64,000 nt of DNA, taken from an uncultured delta proteobacterium. Its GTDB lineage: Bacteria > Desulfobacterota > DSM-4660 > Desulfatiglandales > HGW-15. A program made the translations under genes and the position numbers. Under the pieces are notes generated by a model. It was not told the origin of the DNA, did no database searches, and worked only from the letters and a program-made list of their open reading frames with translations. The stretch spans positions 22,333-86,332 of the forward strand of contig CAVPOU010000007.1 in the NCBI GenBank assembly GCA_963707125.1. The letters run 5' to 3'. Below, in pieces: positions 833 to 56,082 of the stretch (positions within the stretch are counted from its first letter, which is position 1; each line of letters opens with the position of its first letter).

Positions 833-1672
833 ATGGGAATTATGGATTACTTCAAGCCGGTAGATACCTGGTCCCCGGACAAGGTCCGGCAGTTCTTAAA
901 TGAAGAGAGCCCCCAGGACTACAACCTGGTGGATGTGAGGACCCCGAAAGAATACGAAGAGGGGCACCTGCCCGGGGCACAGCTGATTCCCGTGGGAGAA
1001 CTGGAATCCCGGTTGAAGGAGCTGGACAGGACCAAGCCCACGATCACTTACTGAGCGGCCGGCGTACGCAGCCGGGCCGCTGCCGCAGTCCTTTCGCGGG
1101 AGGGTTTCAAGGAGGCCTACAGCATGGAGGGCGGGATTCGTGCCTGGAACGGTCTTAGAGCGGCCGGTCCTCCGGAGGCCGGGATGGCCTATTTCGATCC
1201 GGCCAAGAAGCCGGAGGAGATGATCGCCCTCGCGTGGATGCTGGAGGAGGGGGCTTGCAGGTTCTACAGGGAAATGGGGAAAAGGCACAAGGGTCCGGAT
1301 GAAGCAGCGCTTTTCCGGGAACTGTCGGATGATGAAGAGAAACACAAATCCTCCCTTTTCAAAATCTACCAGAGACGGACCGGCAAGGATGCGGACCCTG
1401 GATTTCCGCGTTCACTCCTCTCCCTAGAATCAGGGGTCGATTATCTGGAGGGCGGGGTGGTCTTGAACAAGGCCCTGGAGTGGGCTCAGGGTCAAGAGCT
1501 GAAAGACATCCTGGACTTTTCTGTTTCTCTGGAGGTGAACGCCACAGATCTCTACATCAAGATGGAGCGCAAAGTGGAGGGAGAAGACGCGAAAGAGGTT
1601 TTTCAGGCCCTGTCCAATCAGGAGAGAAACCACCTGAAGCGGCTTACCGCCGGTCTTCAAAAAGATTGGTAG
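833..1672 (+). CDS. rhodanese-domain / ferritin-like (two ExxH) fusion protein with in-frame UGA at 1052-1054 (candidate selenocysteine)
   Basis: GGAGGG at 821-826 lies 6 nt before ATG 833. Track ORFs ending at 1054 and starting at 1124 are in the same frame (291 nt apart), with no other stop between them. The context KPTITY-UGA-AAGVRSRAAAAVL...GGIRAWNG matches the rhodanese C-x2-G-x-R-S active-site loop. The C-terminal half has LEEGA / DEEKH / LEVNA / QERNH, a diiron four-helix-bundle pattern. Confidence 0.7.
1055..1080 (+). promoter_or_regulatory. GC-rich hairpin directly 3' of the UGA (candidate bacterial SECIS)
   Basis: GCGGCCGGC (1055-1063), loop GUACGCA, then GCCGGGCCGC (1071-1080): 9 bp with one bulged G. 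An overlapping alternative is GCAGC-CGGGCC-GCUGC. Folded by eye only. Confidence 0.4.
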
Positions 1673-3463: not shown

Positions 3464-3673
3464 TGGGAATTCTGGATTATTTCAAGCCGGTGGATACCTG
3501 GCCCCCGGATGAGGTCCGGCAGTTCTTGAATGATAGGAGCCCTAAGGAATACAAGTGGTTGATGTGAAGAGTTTCAAAGAGTACGAAGAAAAGGAAGAGA
3601 AAGCGAAGAAGATATTTGACTCACCGCAGTACTTCAAAAAAACGGGCCATTCATTGCCCGGTGGGAGAAACTC
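3464..3673 (+). pseudogene. decayed duplicate of the 5' end of the rhodanese gene at 833
   Basis: About 125 nt (with a similar RBS region) are ~80% identical by eye to 833-960 (MGILDYFKPVDTWPPDEVRQFLNDRSPKEY vs MGIMDYFKPVDTWSPDKVRQFLNEESPQDY). A 1-nt gap shifts the frame (..VVDVKSFKEYEE in the next frame) and similarity then ends. No active-site loop is present. Confidence 0.5.
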
Positions 3674-4156
3674 ATGAGCGAGGGCGGACTGAAGCAGGCC
3701 AGGCAATTGACCAGCGAGGGGTTTCATTATGATAACCTCGTCGAAATGGCAAAACACTGCCGTGAGGAGACTGATCCCGAAAGGATTTTGAGCGCCTACA
3801 TCCTGAATCGCGTTTTGTCTGATCTGGCGGCAGAACTTGGGGATGGCATCGTGCTCACCGACGAACTGCGCAAGCTGGAGGCCAAATACCGAACCGCCCT
3901 GAATCTCGCGCTTGAAAGCGCGGAGGCAGGGGCACCCCAGGAAGAGCAGAACAGAAGGCTGAACGGATCTCGTCCAGACTGCTGTGGACTTCTGAAGAGA
4001 CAGCGTAAACCTCTGAGTCAGCGGAGGGAAGATCGATGGATAGCGTGCGTTCACAGCCTGTGCTGGTCACGGGCTCCACAGGGTACGTGGGTGGGAGGCT
4101 GGTACCGCAGCTTTTGTCCTCGGGGCACCGGGTGCGCGTCCTGGGCCGGTCTGTAG
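3674..4156 (+). CDS. hypothetical protein (3' end doubtful)
   Basis: The ORF-track protein MSEGGLKQARQLTSEGFHYDNLVEMAKH... has a helical-looking first ~95 aa. Its last 120 nt overlap the next gene in another frame. A +1 shifted frame would instead stop at TAA ~4007-4009, just before the GGAGGG of the next gene. Confidence 0.3.
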   Translation: MSEGGLKQARQLTSEGFHYDNLVEMAKHCREETDPERILSAYILNRVLSDLAAELGDGIVLTDELRKLEAKYRTALNLALESAEAGAPQEEQNRRLNGSRPDCCGLLKRQRKPLSQRREDRWIACVHSLCWSRAPQGTWVGGWYRSFCPRGTGCASWAGL

Positions 4157-5580
4157 CGAAACTCCAGGCCCGTCCATGGGCAACTCGCCCTCTCCTGGAA
4201 ATGGTTCAGGCCGATGTGATGGATCTGGAATCCCTGAAAAAGGCCTGCCGGGGGTGCTGGGCTGCTTTCTACCTTGTTCACTCCATGAGCGCGCGCCACA
4301 AGGACTTTGCCGCAGCAGACCGCAAAGCCGCAGTCAATATGGCCAAGGCTGCAAGTGAAGAGGGAGTGGAAAGGATCATCTACCTCGGTGGGCTCGGCGA
4401 GGAGTCGGATTCCCTCAGCAAGCACCTCAAGTCCCGCATAGAGGTGGCCAGGATACTGCAGTCCGGGAGGGTTCCCACCACCTTTCTGAGAGCCGCCATG
4501 CTCCTGGGCTCGGGCAGCGCCTCCTTTGAGATCCTTCGCTACCTGGCGGAGCGCCTTCCCGTCATGATCACACCCCGGTGGGTAAAAAATCCTGTGCAGC
4601 CCATCGCCATTCGCAATGTGCTGAACTATCTTCAGGGTTGCCTGGAGAATGCGGAAACCACCGGTGGGACATTCGACATCGGCGGTCCGGACGTCCTGAC
4701 CTACCGGCGCCTCCTGGAGATTTACGCGGAAGAGGCGGGTCTTGCAAAACGCTGGATCATACCGGTCCCGGTGCTCACACCACGACTGAGTTCCTTGTGG
4801 ATCCACCTGATAACACCTGTCCCTTCTTACATTGCCAGGCCTCTGACAGAGGGACTCCAAAATCCTGTTGTCTGCCGGGAGGATCGAATAAGGGCTCTCA
4901 TTCCTCAGGAATTGATGACCTGCCGCGATACCATCCGTCTTGCCCTGGGCCGCATCCGCAACCAGTGCGTGGAAACCTGCTGGACGGACGCAGGACAGCC
5001 CTCCATCCCTGAGTGGATCCACTGCGGGGATGCCTCCTATAGCGGAGGCGACATTCTGGAGTCCGGTTACCGGATCGTTTTGGACGCCACACCCGAGGAT
5101 GTGTGGAAACCGATCGTGAGAATCGGAGGCTAAACAGGCTGGTACTCGGCAAACGCTCTGTGGTTCCTGAGAGGTCTGATCGACCGCCTGGCGGGCGGCA
5201 TCGGCTTGCGCAGGGGTCGCCGGGATCCGGCTCGGCTTTATGCAGGGGACGCTGTGGATTTTTTCCGGGTTCTCGAGGTGGAGGAGCCTTATCACCTCCA
5301 CCTCTTGGCTGAGATGAAATTCCCGGGCGAAGCCTCTCTTGAATTCAGGCTCCACCCCATGAAGGATGGCCGAACTGAGCTCCAGCAGCTGTCTCGATAT
5401 GTCCCAAAGGGGCTCTCAGGACTCCTTTACTGGTACATCCTCTACCCCTTCCACGAGTGGGTCTTCCGGGGGATGCTCAGGGGCATTGCCAAGGCAGTGG
5501 GAAGACCTGTCGTCCAGGGGCCGGACCGTTTCGCACCACGACGCCACCATGTCTGCACCTTTGATCCCAGAGTGTCGTAG
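4036..5580 (+). pseudogene. NAD(P)-binding SDR/NmrA-like + DUF2867 protein interrupted by in-frame TAA (5131-5133)
   Basis: VLVTGSTGYVGGRLV is a Rossmann motif. ORFs 4036-5133 and 5206-5580 are in the same frame (1170 nt apart). Reading through gives RIGG-*-TGWYSANALWFLRGLIDRLAGGIGLRRGRRDP, a continuous DUF2867-type sequence. Confidence 0.7.
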
Positions 5581-29863: not shown

Positions 29864-31539
29864 TGAAAAAAAAGCTGGATAACCTCCTCAATGAAGCTCT
29901 GGGGAAATGCTTCAAGACCGGAAAGCTCAAAGAGACCTCTTTGCCGGAATACGTCATCGAAGTCCCGAACAACTCGAACCACGGCCATTTCGCCACCAAT
30001 CTCCCCCTTGTGCTGGCCTCCTCCCAGAGAAAGCGACCGAGAGATCTGGCCACCGTGATCGTAGACAACCTGGAGGACAGGGAAAAGCTGATTGAAAAGG
30101 TGGATATTGCAGGACCCGGTTTCATCAACTTCACCATCACGTTGCATCAGTGGCAAAAGCTCCTGGGCGATATCCTGGCTCTGGGGGCCGACTACGGGCG
30201 AAGCGCCATGGGCGCAGGTCAGAAGGTCCTCGTGGAGTTCGTGAGTGCCAATCCCACCGGACCTTTACACCTGGGACACGGCCGCGGAGCAGCCCTGGGC
30301 GACACGCTTTGCAGGATCCTGGACTTCACAGGCCACGAGGTGGCACGCGAGTTCTACATCAATGACGCAGGGCAGCAGGTTCGCCTTCTCGGAGAATCGG
30401 TTTACAGCCGGTGGAAGCAGCGGTCTGATCCCGGATACCCGTTTCCGGAAAACGGTTATCACGCCGAGTACATTGTTGATCTGGCCAAGGAGATCTCCCG
30501 CGAAGTGGATCTTGGAACTCTGAAGCCCGATGAAGCCATGGCCCGCTGCGCTCAATTCGCCAAGGGGAGAATGCTTGAGGAAATCAAAAGAGATCTGGCT
30601 GATTTCCGTGTGGCCTTTGACCTCTGGTCCAATGAAAGCGACCTCTACGCTTCCGGGCTCATCGAAAAGACCTTGGAGTCGTTGAGGGAGAAAGGGGACC
30701 TCTATGAGGAGGAGGGAGCCCTCTGGATCAAGACCTCCTCCTTCGGGGATGACAAGGACCGTGTGATCAGAAAGAGCGACGGCCAGTACACCTACTTTGC
30801 CCCGGATATCGCCTATCACATCGAGAAGTGGAAGAGGGGCTTCACCAAGGCCATCAACATCTGGGGAGCGGACCACCACGGCTACGTTCAGAGAATGAAG
30901 GCGGCTCTGAAGACCAACGGGATCCAAGAAGAGTGGCTCTCCGTCCTCCTCCTCCAGTTAGTGAAACTGTGGAGGGGCGGGGAAGAGGTGAAGATGTCCA
31001 AGCGGGCAGGGCTCTACGTGACCCTAAAAGAGTTGGTCGAGGAGGTCGGCGTGGATTCGGCGAGGTTCGTGTTCCTGACCAAGAATCACGATTCCGCACT
31101 TGATTTTGACATTGACCTGGTGAAAAAACAGGATGCAGACAATCCTGTGTATTACGTCCAGTACGCTCATGCAAGGATCTCCAGTATTTTCAGAAAGGCG
31201 GCATCCGAAGACCTCTCCTTGCCGAGCGCGCCCGATACGGTTCTAGGGCAAATTGTGCTGGATGAGGAGATGGCGCTGATCCGGCTCATGGCCGATTTCC
31301 CCTCTCTCCTGGAAGACATTAGCCGGACCCTGGAGCCGCACCGTCTCACCTATTATCTGGCGGAACTGGCATCGCTCTTTCACAAGTATTTCAATCTGGG
31401 GACCAAGGAGTCGGAAAAGCGGATTGTAGGCCAGGATCAGGCCTTGAGCCAGGCGAGACTGTGTCTGGCGGAAGGGATCCGGATTGTCCTGTTGAACGGA
31501 CTTCGTCTTCTCGGCATTCACGCGCCGGAGCGAATGTGA
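29863..31539 (+). CDS. argS: arginine--tRNA ligase
   Basis: SANPTGPLHLGHGRGAALGD (HIGH) and VKMSKRAG (KMSK). The ATG overlaps the alr stop by 1 nt. Confidence 0.9.
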   Translation: MKKKLDNLLNEALGKCFKTGKLKETSLPEYVIEVPNNSNHGHFATNLPLVLASSQRKRPRDLATVIVDNLEDREKLIEKVDIAGPGFINFTITLHQWQKLLGDILALGADYGRSAMGAGQKVLVEFVSANPTGPLHLGHGRGAALGDTLCRILDFTGHEVAREFYINDAGQQVRLLGESVYSRWKQRSDPGYPFPENGYHAEYIVDLAKEISREVDLGTLKPDEAMARCAQFAKGRMLEEIKRDLADFRVAFDLWSNESDLYASGLIEKTLESLREKGDLYEEEGALWIKTSSFGDDKDRVIRKSDGQYTYFAPDIAYHIEKWKRGFTKAINIWGADHHGYVQRMKAALKTNGIQEEWLSVLLLQLVKLWRGGEEVKMSKRAGLYVTLKELVEEVGVDSARFVFLTKNHDSALDFDIDLVKKQDADNPVYYVQYAHARISSIFRKAASEDLSLPSAPDTVLGQIVLDEEMALIRLMADFPSLLEDISRTLEPHRLTYYLAELASLFHKYFNLGTKESEKRIVGQDQALSQARLCLAEGIRIVLLNGLRLLGIHAPERM

Positions 31540-31547
31540 GTTCGGGT

Positions 31548-32300
31548 ATGACCAAGAAAATTACCCCATCGAAAAAGAAAAAATACCAGCTGGAGCTCTC
31601 CTCCATATCTCTTGTTTTCTGGGTCGTGTGTATTCTTTTTTTCATGGGCTGGATCTTTGTGCTGGGAATTCTGGTAGGACGGGGCTTTCTTCCCGGCGCC
31701 AACACGGCCATCGCTGACCTGAAATCGCAGGTGACCAAGCTGCAGGAGATGGTGTCGCGTAACAAGCGGGTGGATCAGAAGCCTCAGGCAAAAGAGGATA
31801 TCGATTCCAAACTTGGATTTTATGATAAGCTGGAAAGCAAAAAGGAGGATAAGAGAAAGCCGTTTCCGGAATCGCCTCCCGAGCCTCCAAAGAGCGAAAA
31901 AGCGGTCAAACCCCCTGACACGGCTCTGGCCGAGGTGAAGGCGGACATCGCCAAGAAGGAATCCCTGTCCAAGAAACAGAACATCGCCAAGAGCGCAGGG
32001 CCTGAGAAAAAAGTGAAGGAGACGGTCCCGGAGCCCGTCAAAGCGGCGGAAAAAGCCCTGGGCCCCTTTCGATACGTTATCCAGATCGCCGCCCTGGATG
32101 AAAGAGCCAAAGCGGAGGCCATGGTCGGAAAGTTGTCCGAACGCGGTGTGGAAGCCTATCTCCAGGAGATGGTTGTCAAAGGCAAGACTTACCACAGAGT
32201 GAGATGCGGGAAATTTGTGACCAAAGAAGAAGCCAACAACTACGCCTTGAAACTTCCTAAGGAAGCGGGGACGGCCTGGCGGGTCGTCAACATCGAGTAA
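31548..32300 (+). CDS. SPOR-domain membrane protein
   Basis: N-terminal TM segment, a K/E/P-rich linker, and the C-terminal FRYVIQIAALDERAKAEAMVGKLSERGVEAYLQEMVVKGKTYHRVRCGKF. Confidence 0.75.
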   Translation: MTKKITPSKKKKYQLELSSISLVFWVVCILFFMGWIFVLGILVGRGFLPGANTAIADLKSQVTKLQEMVSRNKRVDQKPQAKEDIDSKLGFYDKLESKKEDKRKPFPESPPEPPKSEKAVKPPDTALAEVKADIAKKESLSKKQNIAKSAGPEKKVKETVPEPVKAAEKALGPFRYVIQIAALDERAKAEAMVGKLSERGVEAYLQEMVVKGKTYHRVRCGKFVTKEEANNYALKLPKEAGTAWRVVNIE

Positions 32301-32303
32301 AGC

Positions 32304-32762
32304 ATGATCAGAAAAGCGGTTATAGAGGACATTAAAACGATTCACAAACTGCTCAGCCATTACGGCGATCAGGGTTTGCTGCTGGCAAGACCCCTGAGCG
32401 AGCTGTATGATCACTTGAGGGATTTTTTTGTCCTGGTCACTGAGGACCGGGAGCAGAAGATTATTGGGACCTGTGCCCTGGGCATTTGCTGGGAAGATCT
32501 GGCGGAGATTCGTTCTCTCGCCGTTCTGGAGGACCAGCAGGGGAACAAGCACGCGACCCGGCTTGTCGAAACCTGTCTCCGCGAAGCAAGATCGCTCGGT
32601 ATCAAGCGGGTGTTTGTGCTGACCTACGTGGACAGGTTCTTTGCCAAGATGGGTTTCAAGACGGTGGAGAAATCCCAATTGCCTCACAAAGTGTGGTCCG
32701 ACTGTTTGAAGTGTTCGAAGTTCCCGGAGTGTGATGAAACGGCGATGGTCCTGGACCTGTGA
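32304..32762 (+). CDS. GNAT-family N-acetyltransferase (N-acetylglutamate-synthase-like small form)
   Basis: AEIRSLAVLEDQQGNKHATRLVETCLREARSLGIKRVFVLT is an acetyl-CoA-binding motif A region. Confidence 0.8.
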   Translation: MIRKAVIEDIKTIHKLLSHYGDQGLLLARPLSELYDHLRDFFVLVTEDREQKIIGTCALGICWEDLAEIRSLAVLEDQQGNKHATRLVETCLREARSLGIKRVFVLTYVDRFFAKMGFKTVEKSQLPHKVWSDCLKCSKFPECDETAMVLDL

Positions 32763-47420: not shown

Positions 47421-49040
47421 ATGAAGTTTCTCCAGAACCTTTACCGTCGCCGTGTATCCGGCCACGAAATCGTCACCCATGAACTGACCCGCCAGCTTTC
47501 CTCCATTTCTTTCGAGATTCAAAGACAGGTTGCGCTTCTGGTGAGCCGAAAAGGAGAGGTCCTTTCCGTCATCGTCGGGGACGACAAGAATATCGTCATC
47601 CCTGATCTGGGGAGATTCAGGCTCGGCTTGGGCAGGCTTAAGGGCCTGAGGTGCCTTCACACGCACATCCACGGCGAGCCCCTGTCCAGGGAAGATCTCA
47701 CGGATCTCGTTCTCCTGGGTCTTGACCTGATGGTGTGCATTGAGGTGGGAGAGGACGGCTCTCCAGGGCCCATTGCCTATGCCCACATTCTTCCTGAGAA
47801 CAGCCGGGGAGAAAAATGGAGTCTTCAAAGGGTCCCTGATGTGGGCCAGCTCCACACGGATTTTCAGGAACTGATCGAGTCCCTGGAAGATGAACTCAGC
47901 CGGAGCAGGGAAGCGCGGCCTCTGCAGCAAAGGGAAAGGGCTGTCCTCGTGGGAGTGAGTGCAGGCCCTGTGTGGCAGATCAAGGAGTCGCTGGAGGAAC
48001 TTCGCGACCTGGCTCTGTCCAGCGGTGTGGAGGTCGCGGATGCGGTGATGCAGCGCCTCAAGCAGGGGAACACCCGGTTCCTGATTGGAAAGGGCAAACT
48101 GATCGAGCTGGTGCTGAGGTGCCTTCAAACCGGATCGACCCTTCTTGTTTTCGATCACGAACTCACCCCGGCCCAGGTGCGAAGCCTCACGGATGCCACG
48201 GAGCTCAAGATCATTGACCGGAGCCAGCTCATCCTGGATATCTTTGCCCGGAGGGCGGTCACACGGGAGGGGAAGATCCAGGTGGAACTGGCCCAGTTGA
48301 AGTATCTTCTTCCAAGGCTTGCCACAAAGAACACGGCCATGTCCCGGTTGACAGGAGGCATTGGAGGAAGAGGCCCCGGAGAGACAAAGCTGGAGATCAA
48401 CCGCAGGCGAGTCAGAGAGCGGATCACCCGGTTGAACCGGGAGATTGAACAGATCCGGCAGCAGAGGGAGGACCGACGACGGTTGCGCAACGTGAGGGGG
48501 CTGCCGGTGATCTCCATCGTGGGCTATACCAACGCCGGCAAATCCACCTTGCTCAACAGCCTGACCCGGAGCCATGTGGCGGTGGAAGACCGTCTTTTTG
48601 CAACCCTGGATCCGAGCAGCCGGAGGCTCCGGTTCCCCCGGGAAAGAGATGTGATCATCACCGATACGGTAGGGTTCATCCGTGACCTGCCTGAAGACCT
48701 CATGGAAGCCTTTGCAGCCACCCTGGAGGAACTCCACGACGCGGATCTCCTCCTCCACGTGGTGGACGCAAGCAGCCCGCGCATGGAAGACCAGATCAAA
48801 ACCGTGGAAGGGATCCTGAGACAACTCGACCTGGACAGGATTCCCGTGGTCCTGGTTCTAAACAAAATCGACCGTCTGGATCCTGGCCAGACGGCCGATT
48901 TATCGAAAAACTTGAAGGGCATTCCGGTTTCAGCCCTCCATCCCAGGACCTTTTCAGGCCTGCTTCAGGAGATGGAGCGGCTCATATGGCCGCGCTCTTC
49001 CAGCCCTTTGACTTCCACAGAGCCCCATCCTTCCCAATGA
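47421..49040 (+). CDS. hflX: GTPase HflX with extended N-terminal region
   Basis: GPGETKLEINRRR and IVGYTNAGKSTLLNSL (G1). Its 3' end overlaps convergent apbE by 59 nt. Confidence 0.85.
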   Translation: MKFLQNLYRRRVSGHEIVTHELTRQLSSISFEIQRQVALLVSRKGEVLSVIVGDDKNIVIPDLGRFRLGLGRLKGLRCLHTHIHGEPLSREDLTDLVLLGLDLMVCIEVGEDGSPGPIAYAHILPENSRGEKWSLQRVPDVGQLHTDFQELIESLEDELSRSREARPLQQRERAVLVGVSAGPVWQIKESLEELRDLALSSGVEVADAVMQRLKQGNTRFLIGKGKLIELVLRCLQTGSTLLVFDHELTPAQVRSLTDATELKIIDRSQLILDIFARRAVTREGKIQVELAQLKYLLPRLATKNTAMSRLTGGIGGRGPGETKLEINRRRVRERITRLNREIEQIRQQREDRRRLRNVRGLPVISIVGYTNAGKSTLLNSLTRSHVAVEDRLFATLDPSSRRLRFPRERDVIITDTVGFIRDLPEDLMEAFAATLEELHDADLLLHVVDASSPRMEDQIKTVEGILRQLDLDRIPVVLVLNKIDRLDPGQTADLSKNLKGIPVSALHPRTFSGLLQEMERLIWPRSSSPLTSTEPHPSQ

Positions 49041-50049
49041 CCAGGGACTCGCAGGCGGCAAGACCATTCACAAACTCCGTGCCCTGAGAGGGCGTCATGA
49101 CGCACAGGGAGGTCGCAAGCGCGTCCGCTTCCATGGTCGTCTTCGCCATGATCGAAACGCTGGTGGTCAGATCCGGAGAAAACCCTGTTTTCGGATTCAC
49201 GATGTGGTGAAACATTTTCTCCCGGTCATAGAAGATCTCGTAATTCCCGGAGGTCGCGATGGACCCATCGCCGATCTGGATCACATCCGGGTAGGTCTGC
49301 CGCTTCCAAGGATCCTGGATCGCCACGGTCCAGGGTTTTCCGTCTTCCTTGGAGCCTCTGGTCCGAATATCTCCGCCGGCATTGATCAGATGATTCCGGA
49401 TGCCGCAGCTGCTCAGAACCTCGGAGGCGCGGTCCACAATGAAGCCCTTGGCAATCCCGTCCAGGGTGATGCCCATCCCAGGAGTCCTGAAGGACAAGGA
49501 TTTCTCCTTAAGATCGATGTTCCGAGCGTCCACCAGCTTGAGGAGATCTTTGATTTCCGTCTCAGTAGGCCAGACCTTCTTTTCGCCGCCCAGCTTTTGC
49601 TGGAAAAGATCCACCACAGGCTTCACCGTGACGTCAAAACAGCCGCCAGTCAGTTGGTGGTAGTCAAGAGAGCTCGCAACCACTCGGGCCACTTCAGGCG
49701 GAAGGTCCTTGAGGTGTCCCTGGGTGTTGAGATCATGGATCGCGGAGGCGTGATCGTAGCGGCTGAGCAACCCGGACAATCGATCGATTTCGCTGAAGGA
49801 CGCTTCCATTGCCTCTTCGGCCTGGTCTTTTGAGGGATGCATCAGGGTCATGGAAACAAAGGTTCCCATGGCAAGCCGGGTCTTGGACACCTTCATCGTT
49901 TTCTTGTTGAAGGAGACCGCTTCTGCTGCAACAGGAAGGGTGGCTGCCGAGGCAATGCCCAACCCGAGCAAGCCGGATAGTTTCAAGAAAGACCGTCGGT
50001 CCATACCCCTCTCGAGATGATCGGTTCCTTTCATTTCGTGCCTCCACAT
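48982..50049 (-). CDS. apbE: FAD:protein FMN transferase ApbE, Tat-type signal
   Basis: MDRRSFLKLSGLLGLGIASAA (RR motif) and an ApbE core (AMGTFVSMTL, GIAKGF). It is adjacent to rnf, whose G and D subunits are flavinylated by ApbE (established knowledge). Confidence 0.8.
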   Translation of the reverse strand: MWRHEMKGTDHLERGMDRRSFLKLSGLLGLGIASAATLPVAAEAVSFNKKTMKVSKTRLAMGTFVSMTLMHPSKDQAEEAMEASFSEIDRLSGLLSRYDHASAIHDLNTQGHLKDLPPEVARVVASSLDYHQLTGGCFDVTVKPVVDLFQQKLGGEKKVWPTETEIKDLLKLVDARNIDLKEKSLSFRTPGMGITLDGIAKGFIVDRASEVLSSCGIRNHLINAGGDIRTRGSKEDGKPWTVAIQDPWKRQTYPDVIQIGDGSIATSGNYEIFYDREKMFHHIVNPKTGFSPDLTTSVSIMAKTTMEADALATSLCVMTPSQGTEFVNGLAACESLVIGKDGALWKSKGWKSAAI

Positions 50050-50291: not shown

Positions 50292-51152
50292 CTACGATGC
50301 GGCTGCAGCCTGCTTCTGTTCCGCTGCAGACGGATGAATGCGGAAAATCTTCCTCGGGCACTTCTCGACGCACACTTCCTTGCACTCCGGCCCATAGGCG
50401 ATGCAGGCTTTGTGATCGATGGCCACCACGTTGTCTTCCATGCGTACCGCTTTGGCCGGGCAGACCTTGACGCACATCTTGCAGGAGATACACCCGGCCT
50501 GACAAATTTCCTTGACCCTCTTGCCGGAATCCTTGGTGCTGCAAGGAACCCAGACCCTTGCCCCCCGAGGCAGAAGTTCGATGATCTTCTTCGGGCAGGT
50601 GCGCACGCAGGTCCCGCAGCCCACACAGGCCACCGGGTCAACAACCGGGAACTCACCGACCATCTCGATGGCATCAAAGGGACAGGCGGTTGCGCAGTCT
50701 CCGAAGCCGACACAAGCATACTGGCATTCCTGAGGCCCGCCAAAGGCAAGATTGGCTCCGGTACAGGTCTGGTAACCGATGTAATGGTATTTCTTGGGAA
50801 CCTTTCCCTCCGGCCTGGAGCACCGCACCCCTGCGACCACATCTTCGATGGCGGCCATTTTCTTTCCCGTGATTTCAGCCACCTCCTTGGCCACTTCGGA
50901 CTTGCCCGGGAAACAGAGGCTGGGCTTGACTTCCGGATCATTCACCACCGCTTCGGCGTAGGCTTCGCACCCGGCGTAGCCGCACCCGCCTCACTGGGCG
51001 CCGGCAAGGACTTCCAGGACTTCTTCCACTTTCGGATTGGCTTTGACCGCAAATTTCTGGGCCGCAAGGGCTAATCCAATACCGAAGAGGAGGCCGATGC
51101 ACCCGAGCACGGCAAGAGCAATGAGGGCTGATGTCACCAGAATGGGATCCAT
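50292..51152 (-). CDS. rnfB: Rnf complex subunit B with in-frame UGA (50993-50991) at the first Cys of the N-terminal CxxCxxxxC motif (candidate selenocysteine)
   Basis: ATG 51152 gives MDPILVTSALIALAVLGCIGLLFGIGLALAAQKFAVKANPKVEEVLEVLAGAQ-UGA-GGCGYAGCEAYAEAVVNDPEVKPSLC. The total of 861 nt is 287 codons in one frame. For comparison, E. coli RsxB has [20 protein letters not shown] (recalled). Ferredoxin-type clusters lie downstream. Confidence 0.75.
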
Positions 51153-51167
51153 TGAAAATAACACCTC

Positions 51168-51803
51168 TTAAAAGAGAGACATTCCGGAAAAACCCATGAA
51201 GGCCAGCGCGAAGAGGCCTGCGGTAATAAACGCGATGGGCAGTCCCCGGTAGGTGGGCGGCACATTGGCCACTTCCAGCCTTTCCCGCACGGAAGACATC
51301 AGGAAGAGCGCGATCAGGAACCCTCCTCCTGCACCGACGGCCAGCATCAGGCTTTCCAGGGCATTGTACTCGCTGTTGGCCAGGATCAGGGGCACGGCGA
51401 GAATGATGCAGTTGGCAATCACCAGCACAAGGTACACGCCGAAGGCCTTGAACAGAGCCGGGTTCACCTTTCGAAGGATCGTGTCCACCGCCTGCACGGA
51501 AAGGGAAACCAGACCGATGAACACCACGATCTGCAGGAAGTCCAGCCTGAACGGCTTGAGCACGAACTGGTACATGAACCAGGACATCATGGCGCTCACC
51601 ACCATCACGAGCGTGAACGTCACGCCCATGCCCACGGCCGTGGACTTCTTCTGGGAGGTGCCGAAGAAAACGCACAGGCCGAGGTATTTCGTAAACACAA
51701 AGTTCTTGATGATCATGGCCCCCAGGAGGACCGAAAGAAGGTACCCGAGGTAGGCTTTCTTGACGGTCAGAAGGGCGGTCCCCTGGGACGTTCCTTGGCT
51801 CAT
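51168..51803 (-). CDS. rnfA: Rnf complex subunit A
   Basis: NFVFTKYLGLCVFFG..., six TM segments. ATG 51803 preferred; a GTG at 51824 is possible. Confidence 0.85.
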   Translation of the reverse strand: MSQGTSQGTALLTVKKAYLGYLLSVLLGAMIIKNFVFTKYLGLCVFFGTSQKKSTAVGMGVTFTLVMVVSAMMSWFMYQFVLKPFRLDFLQIVVFIGLVSLSVQAVDTILRKVNPALFKAFGVYLVLVIANCIILAVPLILANSEYNALESLMLAVGAGGGFLIALFLMSSVRERLEVANVPPTYRGLPIAFITAGLFALAFMGFSGMSLF

Positions 51804-51829
51804 GATTTCTTTGACGGCGAGCACATGGG

Positions 51830-52131
51830 GTTGCTCCTGGTTTAGGGTCTCCCTGGAATGTGAGAGTGACCGTGGTCTTGTCCTGGCTCAAGGCCACTCC
51901 CGCAAGGCCCAGGAGGATGTCCGGGTCTGATTTCTCATAAACCGTATAGTGATCCAATTTCTTGGCCCAGGGTTCATCCACAGGTCCGGCAAAGGTGATC
52001 ACGATTTGATTGGTCCCCTTGAAGGCCGTCCGTTTCACAAAACGGTGCTCGGAGTCGCAACCGGTCAAAAGGAAAAGCCCTGCCAGGAGGAAACATGCCA
52101 AGAAGACGCTCTGTCTCTGAACCTTCTTCAT
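51830..52131 (-). CDS. small lipoprotein-like ORF inserted between rnfE and rnfA (3' end undefined)
   Basis: ATG 52131 is 2 nt after the rnfE stop. MKKVQRQSVFLACFLLAGLFLLTGC has a lipobox, followed by a beta-rich ~75 aa. The frame has no stop until 50938 and runs antisense-free through rnfA and rnfB in another frame. Confidence 0.45.
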
Positions 52132-52133
52132 TC

Positions 52134-52757
52134 CTATCCTTTTTTCTCTTTCATTCTCTTGAAGACAAGGTCCATATAATTGAACATGGCCATCATGAAC
52201 CCAACAACGAAGAACCCTGCTGCAGGGAGAATAAAGAAAAGAAGCGGTTTGTCTCCCACCAGGTCAAAGCCCAGAAGAGTCCCTGACCCCAGGACTTCTC
52301 GGATGGCTCCGAGGGTCACCATCCCGAACAGAAATCCGAGGCCCATGCCGATCGCATCCCAGAAAGAAGGGATGATCGGGTTCTTGGCTGCAAACATCTC
52401 CAGCCGCATGGTGATGATCGCGAAGGCGACAATGAGTTTCACGAAAATTCCCATCTCCTTGTAGGCCGCCGGCATATAAGCCGCAAGAACAAGGTCAATC
52501 ACCGTCACCCAGGTGGCAATCGTGAGGGTGTAAGTGGGAATGCGAATGCGAGGGTGAATGTGGTTTTTGATGGCGGAAATGGTGCAGCTCGAGAAGACCT
52601 GGACAAAAAGGACCCCCACGCCCAGAAGAATGCCGTTCATGACACTTGTGCTGATTCCAACGGCCGGGCACATGGACAGGGCCAGCCGGAAAATGGGGTT
52701 TTCCGCCAGGAGGCCGTTGAACACCAACTGGGAATTGCTTTTCTTTGTGTGTGCCAA
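52134..52757 (-). CDS. rnfE: Rnf complex subunit E
   Basis: GLLAENPIFRLALSMCPAVGIST. Confidence 0.9.
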   Translation of the reverse strand: MAHTKKSNSQLVFNGLLAENPIFRLALSMCPAVGISTSVMNGILLGVGVLFVQVFSSCTISAIKNHIHPRIRIPTYTLTIATWVTVIDLVLAAYMPAAYKEMGIFVKLIVAFAIITMRLEMFAAKNPIIPSFWDAIGMGLGFLFGMVTLGAIREVLGSGTLLGFDLVGDKPLLFFILPAAGFFVVGFMMAMFNYMDLVFKRMKEKKG

Positions 52758-52780: not shown

Positions 52781-53687
52781 CTAGAAAGCCACCGGAAGCT
52801 TCTGCGAGCTAACCACGCGGTCCAGCACCTCGACCCGGTAAGCGAACCGCTTGACCATGCCTTTGACGCCGTCGGTCACCGCCTTGCTCGAAATAGTCGC
52901 CCCTGTGAGGGCATAAATGTCACTGTCCTGGTACTTGGCCCGAACGCGCTGGAGTTCTTCCTGGGACATGGAGCCTTTCTTGACCTCCAGGACCTTCCGG
53001 TACTCTTCAGGAAGAGGCTGCTTCACCACATCGAGCTCTTTGAGTTTCTGGAAGGGCTTGTTCCTGAACTGGTTCTTGAAAAAATCCTGCACGATGTCCC
53101 CGCCCAGGCCCGGGTCTTCTTCGTGTTCCATGATCTCCAGCCCCAGGATGTTAAAGCCGGGATCCACGGCGAGCATCACTTTGATAAAAGTCTTGTAACC
53201 CTGGAAGTGCCCCGGAAGAAGATAGGCCAAACGTTTTCCATCCATGCGGGCCACGATGGTTTCATCCGCGTAAACAAAACCGGCCGGCCCTTTGAGGACC
53301 GCTGAAAGCGCTTTCCCCCTCTCCGGAGCATCGAGCGCTTGTTCCAGGCTCAGCTTCAGCTCGTAGGAGGCGTGAAATTTCCCGTCCAGGGTGAGCACGA
53401 GAAGGGCATACCCGAGGTCGTTTCCTTTATTGACAGGGAACCATGTAGCCCAGGTACTTTGCGTCTTTTTCATCGATGACATAGCGGTAAATGCTGTAGA
53501 GCTTGAGCGCCGAAGGGGCCGGATTCGCTTTCCCATAGCCCAGAAGCCCGAGCATGGTGTCCTGCTCTTTCTGGTGTTCGTTATGCTTTTTTGCTTTGGC
53601 CGTGAACACATAGGCGCTTCCCATGATGGTGCCGGCAGCCAGACAGGATATGATGAGTCCAATGGTGATTCGCAGAATCTGTTTCAT
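52781..53687 (-). pseudogene. rnfG: Rnf complex subunit G, split by a 1-nt frameshift near 53436-53438
   Basis: MKQILRITIGLIISCLAAGTIMG...YLGYMVPCQ* (ATG 53687 overlaps the rnfD stop as ATGA). The next frame continues ..PVNKGNDLGYALLVLTLDGKF...IYALTGATISSKAV (FMN-attachment motif). Removing one C of CCC restores YMVPVNKG. Confidence 0.75.
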
Positions 53688-54712
53688 TTCACGGCACCTT
53701 TTGCTGGAGCAAAACGCTTGGGCTTGAACCACCCGTCCAGAGCAGGGGTCAGGGAGTTCATGAGGAGGATGGCATAGGCCACGCCCTCAGGATAACCTCC
53801 CTTGAGGCGGATCAGGACCGTGAGGGCTCCGACACCGATTCCAAAAAGGATCTGCCCTGTTTTCTGATTCGGGGACGTCACATAATCTGTGGCCATGTAT
53901 ATGGCGCCGAGCGGTACGCCCCCTGAGAGAATCGCGAGCAGGGGGTTGCCTGTGAAAAATTCCTCTCCGCCGAAAATCCAGGTGAAGAAGGCGACGGAGG
54001 CGAAGACCGAAACAGGAATGTGCCAGGTGATGTAACCCTTGTAGATGAGGTAGAGGCCGCCGAGCATGAGCAGGAGAACAGAGGTTTCACCGATACAGCC
54101 CGGCCTCAACCCGATGAAGAAATTTCCGTACATGGTGGAGAGGGATCCGAATTTTTCGATGAGCGTGTCCAGGCCGTAATGTTTGAGAACATAGAGAGGG
54201 GTCGCCGTGCTCACCGCATCGACCCCGGGCGCCATGTACTTGAAGATCGAAGCGTCCCGAAGGGGAGGAAGCCAGGCGGAGGTCATGGCCACGGGGTAGG
54301 TGGCCACCAGAAAAGCCCGGCCGATGAGAGCAGGATTGAAAATATTGTACCCGATCCCACCCATGAGCTGCTTGGTGACAAAGACGGCGATCACCCCGCC
54401 GAGTACCGGCATCCAGTAAGGAACACCGGGAGGGATCACGTAGGCGAGCAACACGCCTGTGATGACGGCGCTGCCGTCTTTGATCGTCACGGGCCTACGC
54501 AGGCATTTCTGCGAGATGGCTTCCGTGGCCAGGCAGCTGCCCACGCTCACCGCGGTGATGATGAGGGTTTGAAAGCCGAAAACAAAGATGGAGAGGATCA
54601 GAGAGGGCATGAGACAGGCCACCACCGTCCACATGATCTTTTCCACCGACTCGTGGCTCTTGACGTGCGGGGACACGGCGACCGACCAGAGTTCGGCCTC
54701 CTTCACCGTCAT
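53684..54712 (-). CDS. rnfD: Rnf complex subunit D
   Basis: Polytopic protein with GGIGYNIFNPALIGRAFL and DAVSTATPL. Confidence 0.9.
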   Translation of the reverse strand: MTVKEAELWSVAVSPHVKSHESVEKIMWTVVACLMPSLILSIFVFGFQTLIITAVSVGSCLATEAISQKCLRRPVTIKDGSAVITGVLLAYVIPPGVPYWMPVLGGVIAVFVTKQLMGGIGYNIFNPALIGRAFLVATYPVAMTSAWLPPLRDASIFKYMAPGVDAVSTATPLYVLKHYGLDTLIEKFGSLSTMYGNFFIGLRPGCIGETSVLLLMLGGLYLIYKGYITWHIPVSVFASVAFFTWIFGGEEFFTGNPLLAILSGGVPLGAIYMATDYVTSPNQKTGQILFGIGVGALTVLIRLKGGYPEGVAYAILLMNSLTPALDGWFKPKRFAPAKGAVK

Positions 54713-54759: not shown

Positions 54760-56082
54760 CTAACGCTTCGCCTTCAACTTAGCAAGACGGATGAACTGCA
54801 CCAGGGGTCTCTTGGCCGGGCAGACAAAGGCGCAGCACCCGCACTCGAAGCATTCGAACAAACCGAATTTCGCCGTGTCCTGAGCCCGGCCTGCCTCCAC
54901 ATAGACGCCGATTTCATTGGGCTGAAGACCCATGGGGCAGGCATCAAGGCACCAGCCGCAGCGAATGCATTGGCTATGCGCCCGGCTGTCGATCTCCTCC
55001 TCGGTGAGGAAGAGCACGCCGGAGGTTGTCTTCGTCACAGGGACGTCCAGTGTGGAGACGGGGAATCCCATCATGGGCCCGCCCATGACGATTCGTGCCA
55101 GGTCCGCCGTTGTCCCTCCGAGATAAGAGACGATGTCACTCAATCTCGTGCCGATTCTCACCTTCAGGTTGGCCGGTCTGGAGATCCCCTTTCCCGTGAG
55201 GGTGATCACCTTTTCGTAGAGAGGCTTGTTCAGGGCTACAGCCTCATAGAGGGCCTTGGTGGTACCGACATTCTGAACGATCACGCCCACGTCAAAGGGG
55301 AGCCCGAACCCCGGCACGCGGCGTTTGGTAATGCTCTCGATGAGCTGTTTCTCCGACCCCTGGGGATACTTGACTTTCAGAGCATCGACAAAGACCTTGA
55401 AGCTGTCGGAGGCTTTGTCCGCAGCCGCCTTCCTCAACGCTTCAACGGCATCCATCTTGTTGGCTTCGATCCCGATGCGGCATTCCTTGATTCCGAGCAT
55501 GGCCAGAATGATTTTTGCCCCTTCGATGATGTCCTCGGGGTGCTCCAGCATGAGACGATGATCGGTGGTCAGATAGGGTTCGCATTCGACCCCATTGATG
55601 ATGAGCACATCGACCTTGGCCTCAGGGGGAGGAGAAAGCTTTACATGGGTCGGAAAGCCGGCTCCTCCAATGCCGACAATGCCCGCCGCCTTGACTTTTT
55701 TCCTCAGTTCTTCAGGGGGCAGGCTTCGCCAATCCTCGATGGTGTAGCTTCTGGGTGGGGCATCCCGATCCGTCTGGATCGTCACGGAGGCGGAGGTGAT
55801 CGAAACGGGATTGGTGGAAGCACCGATGCCTTTGACCGTTCCCGTGACACTCGCATGGATGCTGGCTCCAAGACCGCCGGCCACTTCCCCGATCAGGTCC
55901 CCCTCGCGGACCTTGGCCTTTTTGTCCACGAGAGGCTTGCAGGGAGCCCCAAAATGCTGCTGGAGAAGAATATCCACCTCTTCAGGGATTGGGAGAGTTT
56001 CAATGGCAAGATGCTCGGAGAGGGACTTGGACTCCGAAGGATGAACCCCGCCTTTAGGAAATGTGAGCAACATCTCTTGCAT
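54760..56082 (-). CDS. rnfC: Rnf complex subunit C
   Basis: GIVGIGGAGFPTHVK, and two 4Fe-4S motifs (CIRCGWCLDACP, CFECGCCAFVCP). Confidence 0.9.
   Translation of the reverse strand: MQEMLLTFPKGGVHPSESKSLSEHLAIETLPIPEEVDILLQQHFGAPCKPLVDKKAKVREGDLIGEVAGGLGASIHASVTGTVKGIGASTNPVSITSASVTIQTDRDAPPRSYTIEDWRSLPPEELRKKVKAAGIVGIGGAGFPTHVKLSPPPEAKVDVLIINGVECEPYLTTDHRLMLEHPEDIIEGAKIILAMLGIKECRIGIEANKMDAVEALRKAAADKASDSFKVFVDALKVKYPQGSEKQLIESITKRRVPGFGLPFDVGVIVQNVGTTKALYEAVALNKPLYEKVITLTGKGISRPANLKVRIGTRLSDIVSYLGGTTADLARIVMGGPMMGFPVSTLDVPVTKTTSGVLFLTEEEIDSRAHSQCIRCGWCLDACPMGLQPNEIGVYVEAGRAQDTAKFGLFECFECGCCAFVCPAKRPLVQFIRLAKLKAKR

Follow-up and report, generated by a model that had tools for sequence, protein, structure and literature searches.

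An in-frame UGA at a predicted cluster-ligand position of RnfB is very probably a selenocysteine codon in an uncultured Thermodesulfobacteriota-type anaerobe

The window analysed here is a stretch of 64,000 nucleotides from contig CAVPOU010000007.1, which belongs to an uncultured Thermodesulfobacteriota-type anaerobe. On its reverse strand lies rnfB (50292..51152), a gene for subunit B of the Rnf electron transport complex, whose reading frame contains an in-frame TGA at codon 54 (50991..50993), the first position of an iron-sulfur cluster motif. This rnfB is very probably a selenoprotein gene, in which UGA54 is read as selenocysteine (Sec) at a predicted cluster-ligand position. We favor this interpretation because Sec and cysteine forms are paired at this site in more than 100 sequences, because the codons that follow (55-68) are under selection as coding sequence, because a hairpin is found only where the TGA is found, because the TGA recurs in independent assemblies, and because the window holds a second gene with a Sec/Cys pair.

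Read from the ATG at 51152 to the TAG at 50292-50294, the frame comprises 287 codons with a single internal TGA and would give a protein of 286 residues (transmembrane helix, FdI domain, polyferredoxin part) if the TGA specifies Sec. A first-pass annotation, made from the sequence letters, had described this frame, the TGA and the translation, all of which are exact on re-reading; the C-terminal portion of 218 amino acids (aa) that it reported, beginning at a GTG (50948), is present in the open reading frame (ORF) list, where the frame is split into this ORF and an N-terminal ORF of 57 aa. A Shine-Dalgarno-like sequence, AAGAGGTG (51153..51166, reverse strand, read from the sequence), lies upstream of the ATG, and direct inspection of the sequence reveals no comparable site before GTG 50948. 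The top match of the full-length product is the NCBIfam equivalog NF005503 (435.8 bits, cut-off 252), named ‘RnfABCDGE type electron transport complex subunit B’ at NCBI, and the TIGR01944 rnfB model also matches (98.8 bits, cut-off 68.7). Pfam places an FeS domain (PF04060) at residues 49-81, along with several Fer4 and 4Fe-4S dicluster families. A hydrophobic segment at residues 4-22 forms the N-terminal membrane anchor, and the polyferredoxin part contains 20 further cysteines in ferredoxin-type spacing, enough for five more predicted [4Fe-4S] clusters. The protein aligns with Clostridium tetanomorphum RnfB (7zc6_B) over residues 11-270 (E = 4.8e-58), with residues 100-270 covering the polyferredoxin part of 7zc6_B, which has five such clusters. 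The closest named relatives are from Syntrophus species.

Codon 54 lies in the sequence ..VLAGAQ-U-GGCGYAGCEAYAEAVVNDPEVKPSLCFPGK, in which the Sec motif U-G-G-C has the form UxxC, and in the larger cluster motif U54-x2-C57-x4-C62-x17-C80 the Sec replaces the first cysteine. The first-pass annotation had assigned the UGA to a cluster-ligand cysteine, and alignment bears this out: codon 54 coincides with the first cysteine of the ..CGGCG[FL].GC.. or ..CGQCGFPGC.. stretch in three structurally characterized RnfB proteins (7zc6_B, 9eri_B, 8ahx_B). In C. tetanomorphum RnfB, the C-x2-C-x4-C-x17-C motif has been assigned to the [4Fe-4S] cluster of FdI (PMC9588780), a domain that a flexible tether joins to the membrane anchor on one side and to the polyferredoxin domain on the other, and for which a swinging motion between cluster RnfB-2 and the RnfA/E metal site has been proposed (PMC9588780, PMC12174285); that site is now recognised as an intramembrane [2Fe-2S] cluster (PMC12174285). 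Alignment and motif place the codons of the other three FdI ligands on the reverse strand at 50982-50984 (C57), 50967-50969 (C62) and 50913-50915 (C80). C57 and C62 are upstream of the GTG chosen by gene callers, so the shortened call loses both. The first-pass description of the affected subunit as ‘ferredoxin-facing’ was thus imprecise, as the Sec would sit in FdI, which faces the RnfA/E cluster, and not in the C-terminal domain that accepts electrons from ferredoxin (PMC9588780, PMC12174285). Most likely, though with somewhat less confidence than the recoding itself, Sec54 is a selenolate ligand of the FdI [4Fe-4S] cluster beside three thiolates, an assignment taken from homology to Cys forms; weighing against it, the flexible FdI is poorly resolved in all Rnf structures, and is the part resolved least in each, so that in the cited papers ligation by this residue rests on the motif, AlphaFold modelling and analogy.

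The simplest dismissal of the TGA would be a sequencing or assembly error in place of a true TGC or TGT, and the window assembly is indeed not flawless, since comparison with near-identical contigs points to one indel, located in the 5′ extension of rnfA. The exact 218-aa product of the shortened gene is, however, recorded on 17 contigs, and all ten of those examined, from at least nine separate runs or assemblies, show the same arrangement of a 53-codon ORF, a TGA stop and a 218-aa ORF beginning 42 nucleotides (nt) further on. More distant contigs at 88-91% identity (L001-L003) have the same TGA, which is also present in 13 genomes and at least 117 metagenome contigs, and the possibility of an error is effectively refuted. 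Among the window and these three contigs, synonymous differences are many upstream of the TGA and almost absent for ∼130 nt downstream of it.

The breadth of the family was assessed in two collections. Among the best 80 RnfB loci from collections holding one genome per species, codon 54 is TGA in 13 and TGC or TGT in the other 67, which goes well past what chance would give and supplies the Cys/Sec pairs that the first-pass annotation had proposed to look for among orthologues. Metagenomes were searched with a degenerate DNA pattern for TGA-GG-C-G-[YF]-x-G-C-[DE]; of the 120 matches listed, 117 are RnfB genes with an in-frame TGA, after which almost every complete contig among them retains an intact frame of 230-237 codons. 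The comparisons below use 105 unique Sec forms and 66 Cys forms. The 97 unique Sec forms of full length share 52-98% identity with one another and, in a neighbor-joining tree, interleave with Cys forms, the smallest split that contains all Sec forms also containing 30 Cys forms, which suggests that Sec and Cys have been exchanged repeatedly in RnfB. All full-length database proteins at ≤76% identity have Cys at position 54.

These sequences also bear on the reading in which the gene is split or decaying, with the UGA acting as a stop that leaves a 53-residue membrane peptide and a separate, soluble 218-residue polyferredoxin translated from GTG 50948. All public gene calls for the clade are split in this way, yielding a 232-member cluster of ∼218-aa ‘RnfB’ products, and UGA is a common stop in the window. 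Yet the stretch of 14 codons that separates the TGA from the GTG shows the evolution of a coding sequence: across the 105 Sec forms all 14 third positions vary, whereas first and second positions vary at only three sites, and the resulting exchanges (Tyr/Phe, Ala/Pro, Ala/Gly) are all conservative. This pattern supports translation that runs on past the UGA, with purifying selection on codons 55-68, which encode two of the four FdI ligands. A split would, moreover, remove the only domain linking RnfB to RnfA/E; the TGA is retained among sequences that are only 52% identical, with the downstream frame intact in nearly all complete contigs; and the GTG lacks a Shine-Dalgarno site. We consider a split gene very improbable. 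An alternative genetic code, with UGA read as Trp or Gly, was rejected: TGA is the commonest stop among the long ORFs of the window, ending 22 of 47 (including rnfD), so UGA is not globally reassigned. Recoding of UGA54 as Sec is, on these comparisons, very likely, and we infer that Sec is actually inserted there.

Bacterial Sec insertion sequence (SECIS) elements are modelled as hairpins with a loop of 3-9 nt, a stem of 4-16 base pairs (bp), a G in the first two loop positions, a spacing of 16-37 nt from the UGA and a minimum free energy (MFE) of -7.5 kcal/mol or lower (PMC13188914). A candidate lies directly downstream of UGA54 on the reverse strand (GCUACGC-CGGGU-GCGAAGC, 50962..50980, loop 50969-50973), occupying 19 nt from +14 to +32 when the U of the UGA is numbered +1. 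Its 7-bp stem has one A·A mismatch and closes a 5-nt loop, CGGGU; when the 27-nt segment is folded, this hairpin is the MFE structure (-9.9 kcal/mol, with a frequency of 0.89 in the ensemble), and it evaluates to -8.8 kcal/mol. All features of the bacterial SECIS (bSECIS) model are present, including the loop and stem lengths, a G at loop position 2 followed by another G, a spacing of 17 nt and an energy of -8.8 to -9.9 kcal/mol. Across the Sec forms the element follows the consensus GCUWCSC-HGGRU-GYGAAGC at +14..+32.

Support for this hairpin comes from comparing Sec and Cys forms codon by codon. At synonymous sites, C at +15 (Gly third position, paired with G31) occurs in 104/105 Sec forms and 31/66 Cys forms, and in those Sec sequences the third positions of the three remaining Gly codons, which serve as an internal control, vary freely; A at +30 (Glu third position, paired with U16) occurs in 100/105 and 25/66, respectively. 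C at +18, another such site, which pairs with G28, is found in 90/105 Sec and 15/66 Cys forms. At three further positions a residue exchange adds a stem pair, and the pairing state is enriched in Sec forms: U at +17 (Phe) in 78/105 Sec forms versus 1/66 Cys forms, G at +19 (Ala) in 80/105 versus 11/66, and C at +32 (Ala) in 93/105 versus 3/66. Their stem-breaking counterparts (A17, C19, G32) never occur more than one at a time in the 105 Sec forms, where ∼11 sequences with two or more would be expected if they were independent; all three occur together in 55 of the 66 Cys forms. Within the loop of the Sec forms, +21 is never G, +24 is almost never C, and G23 is invariant (105/105). All 105 Sec forms retain six or seven of the seven stem pairs, and the mean hairpin energy is -8.5 kcal/mol for Sec forms versus +2.1 kcal/mol for Cys forms. 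A SECIS-type hairpin is thus clearly selected only in the UGA forms, a set of constraints that a split gene would leave unexplained. The first-pass annotation had found no convincing SECIS by eye; the fold of the single sequence is indeed unremarkable, and it was the Sec/Cys comparison that brought out the hairpin at +14..+32. The RnfB case shows that a SECIS hidden in one GC-rich sequence can stand out plainly when Sec and Cys orthologs are compared codon by codon.

Several observations weigh against the hairpin, and with it against the reading of rnfB as a selenoprotein gene. Single-sequence folds are unremarkable relative to shuffled sequences (z from +0.06 to -0.98 for segments of 27 nt, 44 nt and 77 nt), and the 77 nt after the UGA fold into a different MFE structure (z = -0.83). 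RNAalifold favors another weak, GU-rich pairing (-5.2 kcal/mol for 15 Sec forms, -2.2 kcal/mol for all 105). A covariation count found no compensatory double substitutions in the stem, as expected when coding constraints hold each of its arms fixed; that count is neutral, neither supporting nor contradicting the hairpin. The p-values for Sec versus Cys forms ignore relatedness among the sequences, the metagenome search pattern itself fixes part of the 5′ arm (but not +15, +19 or +30 to +33), and the Cys comparison set comes mostly from another clade, of Desulfobulbia type. The SECIS of Escherichia coli fdhF has a bulged U17 and a loop dinucleotide G23-U24, with its loop guanines numbered G22/G23. 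Like that element, the RnfB hairpin lies inside the ORF directly downstream of the UGA, with its loop GG at +22/+23, the same distance as G22/G23; unlike it, the RnfB hairpin has no bulged U17 in its stem, and +24 is A or G in 96/105 Sec forms and U in only eight. The RnfB loop is also 5 nt rather than 4 nt, and its stem begins 10 nt rather than 11 nt after the UGA. The RnfB element therefore fits the general bSECIS model and is not an fdhF-type element. The GU-rich pairing was rejected as an alternative, as it leaves the Sec-specific constraints at +30 and +32 unexplained.

The machinery for Sec insertion was sought in the window as well. No selA, selB, selC or selD was seen, with Pfam covering 29 window ORFs, among them about half of those of at least 150 aa; ARAGORN found no tRNA-Sec in the 64-kb window, where it detected tRNA-Leu only, or in ∼210 fetched loci; and a search of the window against Rfam at gathering thresholds likewise returned only tRNA-Leu. 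These results, too, tell against Sec at UGA54.

A second candidate gene, which the first-pass annotation had already counted as another Cys-position UGA in the window, encodes a rhodanese-rubrerythrin fusion (833-1672, forward strand). Its TGA (1052-1054) lies in the rhodanese active-site loop, at the position of the active-site cysteine (..KPTITY-U-AAGVRS..), and here, too, there is a Sec/Cys pair: 28 full-length homologs at 48-56% identity have Cys at this position, and the 80 closest database homologs are shortened calls beginning just past the TGA. One homolog has W there, probably from a TGA read with a different genetic code. In the window gene, a strong hairpin begins 2 nt downstream of the TGA (-25.8 kcal/mol for a 49-nt fold); its loop is just 9 nt away from the UGA, whereas 16-37 nt is usual in the bSECIS model. 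Published lists of selenoprotein families include rhodanese-like proteins (PMC5029168, PMC13188914), and this second pair, as a pattern among homologs, supports a host that decodes Sec.

The same evidence bears on a further possibility, that UGA54 is recoded, but not (or not only) as Sec, either through near-cognate insertion of Cys or Trp or with the site acting mainly as a translational switch, dependent on selenium, through which the level of full-length RnfB is set without Sec altering the cluster chemistry. In favor of it, no Sec machinery was seen in the ORFs and loci covered above, and the Cys forms, which interleave with the Sec forms, are clearly functional, so Sec is not chemically indispensable. 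Against such recoding, the hairpin matches the SelB-type bSECIS model in its position, size and G-containing loop, a second selenoprotein-type gene is present in the window, and the family has been catalogued as a selenoprotein. We regard recoding of this kind as unlikely. As for the two outcomes that the first-pass annotation had left side by side, Sec at a ligand position is favored by the conserved pair, the hairpin and the coding constraint, and the split or mutated gene is not.

If UGA54 is read as Sec, SelB carrying Sec-tRNA(Sec) would recode the UGA, recruited by the in-ORF hairpin (7-bp stem at +14..+32, 5-nt HGGRU loop, GG at +22/+23), and the product would be the full-length, 286-residue RnfB. 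In the small FdI domain, with its flexible tether, Sec54 would then take the place of the first cysteine of the cluster motif (U-x2-C-x4-C-x17-C) and provide a selenolate ligand to the [4Fe-4S] cluster of that domain, which would act as an electron shuttle linking the RnfB polyferredoxin part with the [2Fe-2S] cluster that RnfA/E hold within the membrane. Sec54 may affect the potential, kinetics or robustness of the FdI cluster. A broader proposal, which we offer tentatively and with more doubt than confidence, joins two ideas: that the selenolate is an adaptive tuning of the FdI shuttle cluster, and that the need for a SECIS has reshaped the protein sequence of the cluster loop. The tuning could concern the midpoint potential, the rate of electron transfer to the RnfA/E [2Fe-2S] cluster or the robustness of the cluster, and selection for it would operate in syntrophic or sulfate-reducing Thermodesulfobacteriota that are limited in energy, with repeated gain and loss. 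The reshaping would consist of three exchanges that each add a base pair (Tyr to Phe, Pro to Ala, Gly to Ala), with no more than one stem mismatch tolerated. Neither cluster tuning by Sec nor SECIS-driven reshaping of a protein was found in the searchable Rnf or selenoprotein literature.

The surrounding genes follow the order rnfC-D-G-E-A-B and then apbE, all on the minus strand, and contig L001 keeps the same order and the same position of apbE. Upstream of rnfB lie rnfC (54760-56082, an uninterrupted 440-aa ORF without an in-frame TGA), rnfD (53684-54712, which ends with TGA), rnfG (52781-53662), rnfE (52134-52757) and the core of rnfA (51168-51824); downstream is the flavin transferase gene apbE (48982..50049; PF02424, E = 1.9e-74). 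In L001 and in L204, a contig near-identical to the window, rnfA is a 320-aa ORF with an N-terminal extension of ∼100 residues that starts with a lipoprotein-type signal (..LLTGC..). Relative to both contigs, the window has one extra C at ∼51855-51856 on the minus strand, within 51825-52131 (ACATTCCAGGG vs. ACATT-CAGGG), which shifts the frame of this extension and leaves only the 218-aa RnfA core ORF; the extra C could have arisen in assembly, as an indel, or could be a genuine mutation. RnfG has 293 residues in the window and 301 in L001, with its FMN_bind domain starting only at residue 155, and RnfG of C. tetanomorphum, described as a protein of ∼20 kDa, is far shorter than the window protein, whose additional length is N-terminal. 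An HflX-like GTPase gene (47421-49040, forward strand) converges on apbE with a 59-nt overlap of their 3′ ends (48982-49040), as it does in L001. Three ORFs elsewhere in the window have no Pfam match at E ≤ 0.001: 4051-5355 (434 aa), 3542-4054 (170 aa) and 31518-32687 (389 aa), all on the minus strand.

In public annotation, the shortened 218-aa ‘RnfB’ (50292-50948) belongs to the 232-member cluster, defined at 90%, and is labelled as a complete RnfB in IMG, while the N-terminal ORFs of 53 codons appear as genes of their own, without a Pfam match. This is a systematic mis-annotation of RnfB across the clade. The 218-residue calls strip RnfB of its membrane anchor and of the only domain that contacts the membrane core, so that the Rnf complex looks defective in metabolic reconstructions of these anaerobes from sediment and groundwater; with the UGA read as Sec, RnfB regains its normal complement of six clusters. 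If that reading is true, a respiratory ion pump would occur in nature with either Sec or Cys as one [4Fe-4S] ligand, and would thereby offer a natural experiment on how the identity of a ligand chalcogen tunes a low-potential cluster, while selenium on the FdI cluster would provide a spectroscopic and anomalous-scattering handle (77Se, Se K-edge).

The first-pass annotation, which did not recall RnfB among the common selenoprotein families, implied that this one was new, and here it has to be amended. NF005503/PRK07118 (UxxC) is listed as a selenoprotein family, with ABC78902.1 as its representative, in PMC9312934, and a 2026 review lists ‘NF005503, UxxC, WP_258165141.1’ (PMC13188914); both tables credit Zhang & Gladyshev 2008, although the main text of that Global Ocean Sampling (GOS) paper does not mention the family. 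Because NF005503 is the equivalog of the window RnfB and its U-G-G-C is a UxxC motif, the family was already catalogued, and the rnfB of the window is a mis-annotated member of it, not a discovery. The catalogue entries give a generic name and the motif only; they do not call the family RnfB and contain nothing on the cluster or the SECIS. No published description of a Sec-containing RnfB was found by searching for the name RnfB, or for Rnf in selenoprotein and related genome papers; the family surfaced only under its NCBIfam accession, in the tables of the two reviews. The present analysis adds that the catalogued family is RnfB and locates its Sec at the shuttle cluster of the mobile FdI domain; it also describes how the SECIS is built and has marked the protein sequence, how widely the family occurs in sediment-type metagenomes and how systematically it is mis-annotated.

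Among known systems, RnfC has also been listed as a selenoprotein, with Sec and Cys forms in anaerobes (2016, PMC5029168); it belongs to the same complex but is another subunit with another site, and the RnfC of the window has no in-frame TGA. Other listed Sec proteins with Fe-S or metal motifs include HdrA, FrhD/VhuD/MvhD, the HgcB ferredoxin and a (2Fe-2S)-binding CopZ-like protein (PMC13188914). RnfB resembles these in having Sec at a cysteine of a metal-cluster motif, in low-potential electron transfer and in its occurrence in strict anaerobes, and for most of them, as for RnfB, Sec ligation is deduced from Cys homologs; their folds and complexes are unrelated to those of RnfB. The closest comparison is with the structurally solved Cys-type RnfB proteins of C. 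tetanomorphum (7zc6_B), Acetobacterium woodii (9eri_B) and Azotobacter vinelandii (8ahx_B), with which the window protein shares the transmembrane helix, an FdI domain with the CxxCx4Cx17C spacing, the polyferredoxin part and the operon context, and from which it differs in that its first FdI ligand is, on the reading favored here, Sec rather than Cys.

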